From sequence record PZ019086.1: a DNA stretch of 64,000 bases. One strand, 5' to 3'. The stretch comes from a phage. The notes beneath the pieces were generated by a model. It searched no databases. It saw only the letters and a list, made by a program, of their open reading frames with translations, and had not been told where the DNA came from. This document shows positions 47,618-49,886 of this stretch, in pieces. A program made the position numbers and the translations under genes. Position 1 is the stretch's first letter. Every line of letters begins with the position of its first letter.

Positions 47618-47643
47618 GTTGTTTTCTGTATCAGTAGTTGATA

Positions 47644-47680
47644 GTTGTATAGTACCATAGAAGAACAGGAATGTAAACAG
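47644..47680 (-). promoter_or_regulatory. T4-type early promoter
   Basis: Plus strand tgtatagtacca...tgtaaacagttttgtgaaaaa; approximate. Confidence 0.6.
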
Positions 47681-47810
47681 TTTTGTGAAAAATTTTTTAA
47701 AAAGTTTTAGGGAATTCTAGGGCAGGGAGGGGCAATTAAAGGATAGGATAATATATTATAAATGGTAGAAACTAAATGATGCCTAGAGAGGTCCAAAAAG
47801 GCCTAGATAC

Positions 47811-47838
47811 CAAAAAGCCCCAACCTTTCGGTCGGGGC
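47811..47838 (-). terminator. Rho-independent terminator ending the tRNA/stable-RNA transcription unit
   Basis: Minus-strand GCCCCGACC-GAAA-GGTTGGGGC stem-loop followed by TTTTT; approximate. Confidence 0.65.
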
Positions 47839-47845
47839 TAAGCCT

Positions 47846-48150
47846 TGCGGCAACCTTGTCGGGGTTCCACCTGCTAAGGCAAGTGTTTGTACGAAACGCC
47901 GGGATTCGAACCCGGTTATTAAGCAGTTGACGCTACTCAATATTTTTAAAAGGCCATATCTCGACCATATCCGAACGTTCCGTCAAAAACGCTACTCGGC
48001 TTACGGCAAAGATATTTCCTCGAATCGATAATTCTGTGCGCCGTTTCTGCTGTGATGTAAGGGGATATTAACAAATCGTAAAGATTTATTAAGACCAGTC
48101 CTTACTCAGGGAACATCAGTCCGACGACTTACCGGTAGCGACCCGGCTTC
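47846..48150 (-). ncRNA. Structured tRNA-like stable RNA region (candidate counterpart of T4 RNA species C/D)
   Basis: No ORF; locally GC-richer; a tRNA-like T-arm CCGGGTTCGAATCCCGG flanked by pairing GAAACG/CGTTTC; internal duplicate GAGTAGCGT; immediately downstream of tRNA-Arg and upstream of the terminator; boundaries approximate. Confidence 0.4.
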
Positions 48151-48155
48151 TTGTC

Positions 48156-48231
48156 TGGTCGAGGCAGTAGGGATCGAACCTACGACCTAGGACTTAGAAG
48201 GTCCTTGCTCTTCCTTCTGAGCTATGCCTCG
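48156..48231 (-). tRNA. tRNA-Arg (anticodon TCT), CCA encoded
   Basis: Manual cloverleaf: acceptor CGAGGCA/TGCCTCG, anticodon stem AGGAC/GTCCT, loop CTTCTAA, T-loop TTCGATC. Confidence 0.8.
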
Positions 48232-48235
48232 GATT

Positions 48236-48310
48236 TGGCGGACGTGATAGGATTCGAACCTATAACCAATCGCTTAACAGGCGATCGCTCTGCCATTGAG
48301 CTACACATCC
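48236..48310 (-). tRNA. tRNA-Asn (anticodon GTT), CCA encoded
   Basis: Manual cloverleaf: acceptor GGATGTG/CACGTCC (one G-U), D-stem GCTC/GAGC, anticodon stem ATCGC/GCGAT, loop CTGTTAA, T-arm ATAGG-TTCGAAT-CCTAT. Confidence 0.75.
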
Positions 48311-48314
48311 AAAT

Positions 48315-48401
48315 TGGTGGGGAGTGATGGAGTCGAACCACCCGAGTCGCAATGACAATGGATTTACAGTCCACACCGCTACCTCTACGGGATAACTCCC
48401 C
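48315..48401 (-). tRNA. tRNA-Tyr (anticodon GTA), long variable arm, CCA encoded
   Basis: Manual cloverleaf: acceptor GGGGAGT/ACTCCCC, anticodon stem GTGGA/TCCAT, loop CTGTAAA, long variable arm, T-loop TTCGACT; architecture parallels E. coli tRNA-Tyr. Confidence 0.7.
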
Positions 48402-48414
48402 TTAATTCTTAATT

Positions 48415-48489
48415 TGGTGGCCCTGGGTGGAATTGAACCACCATCTGGCGATTATGAGTCGCTTGCTTGAACCTTCCAGCTACAGGGCC
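48415..48489 (-). tRNA. tRNA-Ile (anticodon CAT, presumably lysidine-modified), CCA encoded
   Basis: Acceptor GGCCCTG/CAGGGCC, anticodon loop CTCATAA; Ile assignment follows T4 precedent, Met cannot be excluded from sequence alone. Confidence 0.7.
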
Positions 48490-48490
48490 T

Positions 48491-48566
48491 TGGTGCTGAT
48501 TGACGGAATCGAACCGCCGACCTTCTCATTACAAGTGAGTTGCTCTACCTACTGAGCTAAATCAGC
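48491..48566 (-). tRNA. tRNA-Thr (anticodon TGT), CCA encoded
   Basis: Acceptor GCTGATT/AATCAGC, anticodon stem ACTCA/TGAGA, loop CTTGTAA. Confidence 0.8.
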
Positions 48567-48571
48567 AAAAC

Positions 48572-48661
48572 TGGCGGAGGCGATAGGATTCGAACCTATG
48601 AGTCGCTGGAGCGACTGCCGGTTTTCAAGACCGGTGCATTAAACCACTCTGCCACGCCTCC
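48572..48661 (-). tRNA. tRNA-Ser (anticodon TGA), long variable arm, CCA encoded
   Basis: Acceptor GGAGGCG/CGCCTCC, anticodon stem CCGGT/ACCGG, loop CTTGAAA. Confidence 0.8.
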
Positions 48662-48663
48662 AG

Positions 48664-48737
48664 TCTCCGTGGCAGGATTTGAACCTGCGACATTCTGCTC
48701 CCAAAGCAGACGCTCTACCAAACTGAGCTACACGGAG
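48664..48737 (-). tRNA. tRNA-Pro (anticodon TGG), CCA not encoded
   Basis: Acceptor CTCCGTG/CACGGAG, anticodon stem TCTGC/GCAGA, loop TTTGGGA. Confidence 0.8.
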
Positions 48738-48747
48738 TAAATTAAAT

Positions 48748-48821
<74 letters not shown>

Positions 48822-48826
48822 AAATT

Positions 48827-48913
48827 TGGTGCGAGAAGTGGGACTCGAACCCACAAGGAAATCATTCCGCAGCATTTTAAGTGCTGTGCCTTTACCAATT
48901 TGACCATTCTCGC
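48827..48913 (-). tRNA. tRNA-Leu (anticodon TAA), long variable arm, CCA encoded
   Basis: Acceptor GCGAGAA/TTCTCGC, anticodon stem CAGCA/TGCTG, loop CTTAAAA. Confidence 0.8.
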
Positions 48914-48914
48914 G

Positions 48915-48987
48915 CTGGGAATAAAGGACTCGAACCTTTGCATCTAGCAGTCAAAGTGCTATGCCTTACCAACTTGGCTAATTCCCA
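48915..48987 (-). tRNA. tRNA-Gln (anticodon TTG), CCA not encoded; abuts tRNA-Leu (dimeric precursor)
   Basis: Acceptor TGGGAAT/ATTCCCA, anticodon stem TAGCA/TGCTA, loop CTTTGAC; boundaries consistent with ORF-track coordinates in this region. Confidence 0.8.
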
Positions 48988-49075: not shown

Positions 49076-49591
49076 TTAAAGCAAATCAATCATTTTAACA
49101 GTTGGCAAAACGATTTCTTCTTCAATATAAGCGAATTCAACACATTCAACTACACGCAAGAAATCATAATCATAATATTCAGAAGCATGGCCAAGAATAT
49201 CAATGAGACCTTCTGATACCAAATATCCATTCTCACGGAACAGGTCGAATACACGCGATTCGTCTTCTTCAGATTTATTACCAAGGTCGACTTCAATATC
49301 AAAGACCTTTTTAATGAATTCTGGATAAAGCTGGTCTGAGAACAGTCCTTCAACCAAGTATTCATAGATTAAAAGCGAGCAATCACTGAATAGTGTATTA
49401 CCACAGTAACGTTCAGCTTTAGTGCTAGAATGACGACTCTTAAATTTCTTCAAGAGATATTTAAACTGTTGGAGCTCATGCTCTTCTACACCAAATAATG
49501 TTTTGGTTTTATAGTTGTCGCCGTCATTTTCCCAAGTAGTGACATCAATTACGTAACCTTTAGGAATTGTACTGCCTAAACAAATATTCAT
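49076..49591 (-). CDS. Hypothetical acidic protein upstream of the tRNA cluster
   Basis: Start set to ATG at 49591 (MNICLGSTIPKGY...) with RBS. Confidence 0.55.
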   Translation of the reverse strand: MNICLGSTIPKGYVIDVTTWENDGDNYKTKTLFGVEEHELQQFKYLLKKFKSRHSSTKAERYCGNTLFSDCSLLIYEYLVEGLFSDQLYPEFIKKVFDIEVDLGNKSEEDESRVFDLFRENGYLVSEGLIDILGHASEYYDYDFLRVVECVEFAYIEEEIVLPTVKMIDLL

Positions 49592-49595
49592 TTTC

Positions 49596-49886
49596 TCACC
49601 GTACCATATTAATGTAATTATATTCAATGCAACGTAATTTCAAAGGATTCTTGAAAATATCATATTCAAGAGGGCCTTTTTCTGTTTCAATAAAGAAATC
49701 AAAATTTACTGTATTAAATTTACGGTCTTCCTTCACTAATTTAACTTGAGAAGATGAACGGTCAATGTAAACCTTTTCAACTTCAAAACATGTTAAAATG
49801 CCATAATCATCAATCAAGGCTTTAGCTGCTTCTTGATCATATTTATATCCATTTTCAATGGATGATACTTTCGCATAAAGAATCAT
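49596..49886 (-). CDS. Hypothetical protein
   Basis: Start set to ATG at 49886 (MILYAKVSSIENGY...). Confidence 0.5.
   Translation of the reverse strand: MILYAKVSSIENGYKYDQEAAKALIDDYGILTCFEVEKVYIDRSSSQVKLVKEDRKFNTVNFDFFIETEKGPLEYDIFKNPLKLRCIEYNYINMVR

Follow-up and report, generated by a model that had tools for sequence, protein, structure and literature searches.

Known systems

T-even phages do differ in their tRNA complement, and these differences matter for function: in published work, the presence, absence and copy number of tRNA-Tyr have been linked to Septu sensitivity, and the tRNA-Asn gene has been identified as the landing site of SegB. When the tRNA regions of T2L, RB1 and RB3 were sequenced, they were found without segB and with tRNA-Tyr and tRNA-Asn genes (Brok-Volchanskaya et al. 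2008, PMC2330249). The major, preferred SegB cleavage site, 27 bp in length, lies inside the T2L tRNA-Asn gene, and in T4 x T2L crosses the homing of SegB excludes the T2L segment that encodes tRNA-Met, -Tyr, -Asn and -Arg; the same study termed the tRNA region non-essential (PMC2330249).

Studies have shown that tRNA-Tyr is cut by bacterial defence systems. In T6-infected cells, for example, Septu EcB88 (PtuAB) cleaves the variable arm of E. coli tRNA-Tyr at C48/A49 (Chihara et al. 2026, PMC13096335). The T6 tRNA-Tyr, which was seen by Northern blot and is functionally active, restores infection on Septu when it is over-expressed or amplified by SegB, and deletion of the tRNA region sensitises T6; because the T6 tRNA-Tyr is also cut by Septu at C48, with escape achieved through dosage, a single copy gives partial protection only (PMC13096335). 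The phage most sensitive to Septu is T4, which does not have a tRNA-Tyr; T2 is resistant, a phenotype of the whole phage (PMC13096335). Similarly, the tRNA-Tyr of T5/SP15 neutralises retron-Eco7 (Azam 2024, PMC11555353; PMC12673091); it stays uncleaved in vivo, and its longer variable loop is required (PMC11555353, PMC12673091).

Two further systems concern tRNA-Asn. AriB of the PARIS system has tRNA-Lys(UUU) as its main target and recognises a UAAU element at positions 36-39, so that the change U39A abolishes cleavage of tRNA-Lys, and the Lys, Thr and Asn tRNA variants of T5 jointly neutralise PARIS (PMC12409363). Both T4 and T6 are restricted by PARIS. The determinant recognised by colicin E5 is YGUN, and tRNA-Tyr and tRNA-Asn are two of its four substrates (PMC1635277).

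In this study, a 64-kb stretch of phage DNA (hereafter the window) was analysed, which contains a tRNA-Tyr and a tRNA-Asn gene within a tRNA cluster. We believe that the two are likely to be a functional phage tRNA-Tyr(GUA) and tRNA-Asn(GUU) of a T2/RB27-type T-even tRNA operon.

Organization of the tRNA operon

The window comes from a Tequatrovirus (T4-like phage); the best deposited records are approximately 96% identical to it over 24 kb, with no exact match. ARAGORN called ten minus-strand tRNA genes, which lie between 48156 and 48987 with spacers of 1-13 nt (Table 1). The calls include tRNA-Tyr(gta) and tRNA-Asn(gtt) exactly at 48236-48401, where a preliminary description made from the letters had placed them. 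Nine of the ten tRNAs score 59-74 bits with the Rfam tRNA model. Transcription runs through Gln, Leu, Gly, Pro, Ser, Thr, CAT-tRNA, Tyr, Asn and Arg, followed by rnaD and rnaC and ending at a terminator, which agrees with the T4 order of Gln, Leu, Gly, Pro, Ser, Thr, Ile ... Arg given in the preliminary description. ARAGORN labelled the CAT tRNA as Met. This label was dropped for Ile2, since the top E. coli matches, 81.6% identical over the full length, are annotated as tRNA-Ile, and the name Ile in the preliminary description was therefore the better one.

Table 1. Features of the tRNA and stable-RNA region, with positions counted from the first letter of the window
Feature	Position	Strand	Basis
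Intrinsic terminator-like hairpin with T-run, end of the tRNA/stable-RNA transcription unit	47816..47839	-	10-bp stem with 7 G-C pairs, then TTTTT
rnaC (species 1 stable RNA) homologue	47890..48028	-	blastn: 100% to RB27 rnaC, 98.6% to T4 rnaC
rnaD (species 2 stable RNA) homologue	48036..48154	-	blastn: 91.6% to RB27 rnaD, 88% to T4 rnaD
tRNA-Arg(UCU), T2/RB27 allele, strongly divergent from T4/T6 tRNA-Arg	48156..48231	-	ARAGORN; sequence comparison
Preferred SegB homing site, inferred, 27 bp (GGTTCGAATCCTATCACGTCCGCCAAA), made up of the 3' part of the tRNA-Asn gene and 2 further nt	48234..48260	-	Motif and signature bases; start inferred
tRNA-Asn(GUU), 75 nt, G73, encoded CCA	48236..48310	-	ARAGORN; Rfam 74.1 bits
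tRNA-Tyr(GUA), 87 nt, class II, long variable arm, A73, encoded CCA	48315..48401	-	ARAGORN
tRNA-Tyr variable arm UGUCAUUGCGACUCG (tRNA positions 45-59), holding the G46-U47-C48-A49 PtuAB cut site	48343..48357	-	Identical to T5 and T6; PMC13096335, PMC12673091
CAT-anticodon tRNA, most likely tRNA-Ile2 (lysidine type), T2/RB27 allele	48415..48489	-	ARAGORN; E. coli matches
Gln(UUG), Leu(UAA), Gly(UCC), Pro(UGG), Ser(UGA) and Thr(UGU), the six upstream tRNAs of the operon	48491..48987	-	ARAGORN; Rfam 59-73 bits each

The ten tRNAs, rnaD and rnaC most likely make up one minus-strand unit that ends at the terminator and, like that of T4, is presumably transcribed early and processed by the RNases P and E of the host. 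A search for the promoter of the operon returned 9 sigma-70-like sites, against 7.8 +/- 2.9 in shuffled sequences, and nothing that rose above the shuffles.

Alternative cassettes at the Ile-Arg position

T4 (NC_000866) shares with the window the general layout of the operon, its first six tRNAs and both rnaD and rnaC. Between tRNA-Ile and tRNA-Arg it carries segB, as the preliminary description stated, and it has neither tRNA-Tyr nor tRNA-Asn; its Ile and Arg sequences also differ from those of the window. The cluster had been read as the eight T4 tRNAs with two more inserted, which is correct for the anticodons but not for the sequences. The CAT tRNA and the tRNA-Arg of the window are identical or nearly identical to those of T2/RB27 (the CAT tRNA is identical to both) and divergent from those of T4/T6, and homology to T4 picks up again at tRNA-Thr upstream and at rnaD/rnaC downstream. 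Because the CAT and Arg alleles are unlike those of T4, the comparison points to two alternative cassettes and not to a simple insertion into a T4-like backbone: a four-tRNA, segB-free cassette, CAT(Ile2)-Tyr-Asn-Arg, replaces Ile-segB-Arg. Judged from these alleles, the cassette of the window, T2 and RB27 alternates with an Ile-(Tyr)-segB-Arg form, which is found in T4 and, with tRNA-Tyr retained, in T6.

The frequencies of the two forms were counted as BLAST matches. The Tyr+Asn pair was found in 434 phage records, where GenBank annotates the genes as tRNA-Tyr and tRNA-Asn, and the 841-bp block of ten tRNAs in 398 phage records at a coverage of at least 80%, with a best single-piece match of 99.2%. 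T4 segB, at a coverage of at least 80%, was found in 126 records. Since segB occurs in 126 records and the Tyr+Asn pair in 434, the segB layout of T4 is the minority state and the cluster with Tyr and Asn the majority state, so that calling the two genes "extra" is T4-centric wording. The segB-free Tyr-Asn arrangement is the commonest among the sequenced T4-like phages.

The closest relatives carry the same arrangement. T2L, RB1 and RB3 (AJ880101, AJ884577, AJ884578), RB27 (KM607000) and T2 (AP018813) have the same genes in the same order, the same CAT and Arg alleles and no segB. The tRNA-Tyr of T2L, T2 and RB27 differs from that of the window by 0-1 nt, and their preferred SegB site lies in tRNA-Asn, as in the window. 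In RB27 all ten tRNAs are contiguous and in the same order, but an ORF between e.8 and rnaC is missing from the window. In T2, an ORF stands where tRNA-Thr would be, and a second ORF follows tRNA-Arg. The T6 tRNA-Tyr has the same variable arm and anticodon loop and the same place after the CAT tRNA, whereas it is followed by segB and not by tRNA-Asn and stands in a T4-type CAT/Arg background. In gene order, in the CAT and Arg alleles and in the absence of segB from the window, the locus agrees with the T2/RB27-type segB-free allele of the T-even tRNA operon. Both genes have thus already been described, within the T4-like tRNA cluster in its common T2-type form, and this pair is not the curiosity it was taken for: the T2L genes have been in print since 2008 (PMC2330249).

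tRNA-Asn and the SegB site

The tRNA-Asn gene was matched by the Rfam model RF00005 at 74.1 bits, far above the gathering score of 29 (E = 6.6e-16). Its product has the loop CUGUUAA, with GUU in a 7-nt loop, and the 3' end ...GUCC-G-CCA; the identity elements of AsnRS are G34/U35/U36 and G73. The gene is identical to those of T2 and RB27 at 75 of 75 positions.

The inferred SegB site opens with the motif GGTTCRANTCC and has G6, A16, G18, A26 and A27, the bases named for the preferred site of T2L, and the T2L primers #6, #7 and #12 match the window exactly (PMC2330249). The 27-bp preferred site, its start being placed from this motif, therefore appears to be intact in the window. A tblastn search of the 64-kb window with SegB gave nothing better than E = 1.8. 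We also looked for a remnant of tRNA-Asn within or beside segB in T4 or T6, which would have pointed to an insertion of segB into the tRNA-Asn gene; the best local alignment scored 17, which was equalled by 331 of 1000 shuffles, and this candidate was rejected.

Since the preferred SegB site lies in tRNA-Asn, the cassette would be expected to be cut and replaced in a mixed infection with a segB+ phage, as demonstrated for T2L. The window phage is thus predicted from its sequence to lose the cassette on such a co-infection.

Structure and lineage of tRNA-Tyr

The best match of tRNA-Tyr within its Rfam clan is tRNA-Sec, at 34.4 bits, which is under the gathering score of 47; the RF00005 match is lower and hidden by it. 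The gene had been called well-folding, and by thermodynamics this did not hold: the minimum free energy fold has no cloverleaf and is no better than those of shuffled sequences (z = -0.91). Thermodynamic folding was uninformative as a test of this tRNA, and covariation was used instead.

An alignment was made with 12 phage homologues from six phage groups, including those of T6, T5, two Vequintavirus phages, a Seunavirus, two Certrevirus phages, a Felixounavirus, a Klebsiella T4-like phage, a Karamvirus and a Schitoviridae phage. When a cloverleaf was drawn on this alignment, 99.7% of the cells were paired. Compensatory changes occur in 15 of the 24 cloverleaf pairs, a support reached by none of 500 shuffles, and when the cloverleaf was slid along the alignment as a control, pairing dropped to 45-59%. 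The D-arm is canonical (CCGU / AGRGGUA / GCGG), with 100% pairing, but the connector between it and the acceptor stem measures 4-5 nt (4 nt in the window gene), compared with the usual 2 nt (positions 8-9). The low Rfam score is explained by this connector in front of a canonical D-arm. A D stem in the standard register was also tried and was rejected, because it contains a CxC mismatch in 12 of 12 sequences and is only 62.5% paired.

TyrRS recognises the long variable arm, A73 and the GUA anticodon as identity elements. In the window tRNA, the variable region is 15 nt long and contains a 3-bp stem, position 73 is A, and the anticodon loop reads CUGUAAA. Taken together, the alignment and these elements show that the gene is a genuine tRNA-Tyr gene of class II, from a lineage specific to phages. 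It is identical to that of RB27, 1 nt from that of T2 and 2 nt from that of T6 (85/87), and phages of unrelated families carry members of the lineage that are 80-96% identical. The odd connector is shared by the members from T-even, T5, rV5-like, FelixO1-like and N4-like phages.

tRNA-Tyr and PtuAB-type defences

The preliminary description had suggested that tRNA-Tyr is a target of defence nucleases and that a phage copy could replenish the cleaved tRNA or resist cleavage. A tRNA-Tyr-targeting defence countered by a phage copy does exist, as the T6 gene, 85/87 identical to that of the window, does so against Septu and the T5/SP15 gene against retron-Eco7. The site of attack is different from the one suggested: these nucleases cleave tRNA-Tyr at U47/C48/A49, which lies in the variable arm and not in the anticodon. 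Replenishment is supported by the experiments on near-identical genes. Resistance to cleavage applies to retron-Eco7, under which the T5/SP15 tRNA-Tyr stays uncleaved in vivo, and not to Septu, which cuts the T6 tRNA-Tyr.

The cut site G46-U47-C48-A49 is invariant across host and phage tRNA-Tyr, including that of the window. The variable arm and T-arm of the window tRNA-Tyr are exactly those of T5, and the variable arm is also that of T6. The T5/SP15 tRNA-Tyr is thus identical in its 3' half, including the long variable arm, and has the same architecture of connector and D-arm, but its acceptor and anticodon stems differ. Moreover, the T5 gene is driven by a strong promoter of its own, while that of the window is the seventh to eighth in an operon of ten.

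We believe that the tRNA-Tyr of the window would replenish the pool of this tRNA when the host tRNA-Tyr is cleaved in its variable arm by PtuAB-type nucleases (Septu, retron-Eco7). This anti-defence role has been demonstrated for near-identical genes, and by analogy it probably extends to the window phage, which is predicted from its sequence to be T2-like, that is, resistant to Septu EcB88. The escape of T6 by SegB-driven amplification would be unavailable to the window phage, because no segB was found in the window. The defence idea was right in spirit for tRNA-Tyr, and the genes and this idea are already covered by published work on T2L, T2, T6 and T5. An analogous anti-nuclease role may be envisaged for tRNA-Asn, whose candidate roles are codon demand and PARIS AriB.

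Codon demand

The codons of 68 long ORFs of the window were compared with those of 61 ORFs from two 50-kb regions of E. coli K-12. The phage/host ratio was 2.27 for TAT and 2.39 for AAT, and Tyr (1.62x) and Asn (1.48x) were the second and third most enriched of the 20 amino acids, after Lys (1.97x). His and Asp, which belong to the other queuosine tRNAs, were at 0.75x and 1.19x and are neither enriched nor encoded. The cognate codons of all ten phage tRNAs were enriched (Mann-Whitney p = 2.6e-4 over all codons, p = 0.007 among A/T-ending codons). Both tRNAs would therefore be expected to add decoding capacity for the Tyr and Asn codons of an AT-rich phage, which uses them 1.6x and 1.5x as often as E. 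coli, and supply matching is a credible co-function of both.

It could be argued that supply is all there is, with both tRNAs matching the pool to an AT-rich, Tyr- and Asn-rich proteome and taking no part in defence. Supply accounts for the choice of Tyr and Asn rather than His and Asp, but it leaves the missing tRNA-Lys unexplained: Lys and Ile-AUU (2.04x) are as enriched or more so and have no phage tRNA. In addition, the T6 tRNA-Tyr has a demonstrated effect on Septu immunity, and T4 grows normally without the gene when defence pressure is absent (PMC13096335); the region has also been called non-essential (PMC2330249). We consider supply as the sole function unlikely, and we prefer the reading in which supply and, for tRNA-Tyr, the countering of PtuAB-type nucleases go together.

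tRNA-Asn and PARIS AriB

At positions 36-41, tRNA-Asn reads UAAUCC in the host, UAAGCG in the window, UAAGUU in T5 and UAAGCG in a Felixounavirus. The window tRNA thus has G39 where the host has U39, within the UAAU element beside the AriB cut site. T5 tRNA-Asn(GUU) has the same anticodon and the same change of U39 to G that breaks this element, but its stems are otherwise unrelated in sequence. In tRNA-Thr(UGU), the same positions read UAAUGA in the window and in T4, against UAAUCA in the host. The C31-G39 pair of the window tRNA-Asn disrupts the UAAU element, which is common to the tRNA-Asn of the host and other AriB substrates, and the stem-loop changes in Asn and Thr are compatible with selection for resistance to AriB-type nucleases.

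Compared with the anti-PARIS set of T5, the set of the window is incomplete, because no tRNA-Lys(UUU) was found among its ten ARAGORN calls and the primary target of PARIS is not covered. As tRNA-Lys is missing from T-even phages, and as PARIS restricts T4 and T6, a resistant tRNA-Asn would not be enough by itself to overcome this system. PARIS resistance is therefore a lead and not a conclusion, given that T-even phages without tRNA-Lys stay sensitive. The change in tRNA-Asn could have been selected by a defence that targets tRNA-Asn and has not yet been tried on T-even phages. Separately, the conserved 4-5-nt connector of the phage tRNA-Tyr lineage could affect recognition by PtuAB-type nucleases. 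We find it rather doubtful that both parts are right, with tRNA-Asn as a cleavage-resistant variant and the connector of tRNA-Tyr as a structural adaptation. As another candidate for a system that targets Tyr and Asn, bacterial Schlafen was considered and set aside as irrelevant, its reported targets being Lys, Ala and Met.

Other explanations

The two genes might also be neutral passengers in a mobile cassette, in which the T-arms of tRNAs serve as landing sites of homing endonucleases and the decoding of Tyr and Asn is unselected. The preferred site of SegB in the tRNA-Asn gene (PMC2330249), the association of segB with tRNA genes across phages and the spread of the tRNA-Tyr lineage over unrelated families at 80-96% identity agree with this. 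Nevertheless, T2, RB27 and the window have tRNA-Asn genes that are 100% identical, against approximately 96% for the surrounding genome, compensatory changes keep every stem of tRNA-Tyr, and a functional effect has been demonstrated for the tRNA-Tyr of T6. We regard the passenger explanation as quite improbable.

Very improbable, too, is the colicin E5/queuosine rationale of the preliminary description, according to which the phage copies resist or replace tRNAs cut between Q34 and U35 by E5-type anticodon nucleases. Colicin E5 is a bacteriocin and not a defence triggered by phage. The phage tRNAs do include two of its four substrates, but the other two, tRNA-His and tRNA-Asp, are absent from the ten tRNAs called by ARAGORN in the cluster. 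The YGUN determinant is intact in both genes (UGUA in tRNA-Tyr, UGUU in tRNA-Asn), and the whole 7-nt anticodon loops, CUGUAAA and CUGUUAA, are identical to those of the host, so no resistance is expected. Mutations in the anticodon loop (positions 32-38), by which phage tRNAs become insensitive to nucleases in the model of van den Berg et al. (2023), are thus not seen in either tRNA.

Finally, the sub-threshold Rfam score of tRNA-Tyr and its non-cloverleaf fold could suggest false positives or pseudogenes, an idea that is refuted for practical purposes by the covariation, the identity elements and encoded CCA, the Northern detection and activity of the T6 orthologue and the 74 bits of tRNA-Asn.

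tRNA-Tyr lineage and its connector

The connector between the acceptor stem and the D-arm is universally 2 nt in tRNAs. This length is found in E. coli tyrU, whereas in the phage-lineage tRNA-Tyr, including that of the window, 4–5 nt (UAUC, UAUU, UAGA, UAAUU or UAUUU) separate the acceptor stem from a canonical D-arm (alignment A7, 12 phage genes). The poor Rfam score of the window's tRNA-Tyr is explained by the longer connector. This lineage is common to T-even, T5, Vequintavirinae, Felixounavirus and Schitoviridae phages, with identities of 80–96%.

Among the records matched in searches with the Tyr+Asn pair and with the ten-tRNA block, approximately 18 bear the label "Campylobacter phage" (one of them is MG065666, of 135 kb); their tRNA-Tyr was 95.6% identical to the coliphage lineage. 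In size and matches, these records resembled rV5-like coliphages, so that their host labels may be doubtful. Escherichia phage nom has, two genes downstream of its tRNA-Tyr homologue, a gene annotated as "tRNA-OTHER"; ARAGORN predicted it to be tRNA-like, 99 nt long, and to have an anticodon of four bases (atcc).

Mosaicism in and around the tRNA operon

The CAT-anticodon tRNA and tRNA-Arg(UCU) each occur as two strongly divergent alleles in T-even phages, one type in T2, RB27 and the window and the other in T4 and T6. Because T6 carries the T4-type alleles of both genes and yet has tRNA-Tyr, this split does not track the presence of tRNA-Tyr. The CAT tRNA of the window was called "Met" by ARAGORN, whereas its best E. 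coli matches were tRNA-Ile of the lysidine type.

RB27_136, a 462-bp ORF lying between e.8 and rnaC in RB27, is absent from the window. A 183-aa ORF is present upstream of tRNA-Gln in the window; T4 has no ORF at this position, whereas RB27 and T2 have an annotated 516-bp ORF in the equivalent place. The missing e.8–rnaC ORF and the ORF upstream of tRNA-Gln add to the mosaicism that surrounds the tRNA operon.

Features of other tRNAs

The tRNA-Thr(UGU) of the window has an A27×A43 mismatch, where T4 has C27–G43. At position 40, the AriB cleavage position, the window and T4 have G40 and the host has C40.

Class II tRNA-Asn is unusual. In two T4-like phages, Klebsiella phage Roth80 and Enterobacter phage PG7, tRNA-Asn(GUU) is 85 nt long; its variable arm is long and resembles that of class II tRNAs, whereas its anticodon stem (UAAUCC) is like the host's. 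The PG7 gene is annotated as "tRNA-Asx".

Coordinates of the features described
Feature	Sequence	Position	Strand
tRNA-Arg(UCU)	window	48156-48231	-
tRNA-Tyr	window	48315-48401	-
CAT-anticodon tRNA	window	48415-48489	-
tRNA-Thr(UGU)	window	48491-48566	-
Absence of RB27_136	window	47618-47815	
183-aa ORF	window	49076-49627	
tRNA-like gene	phage nom, locus L010	3-101	
tRNA-Asn(GUU)	Roth80, locus L012	232-316	
tRNA-Asn(GUU)	PG7, locus L013	105-189
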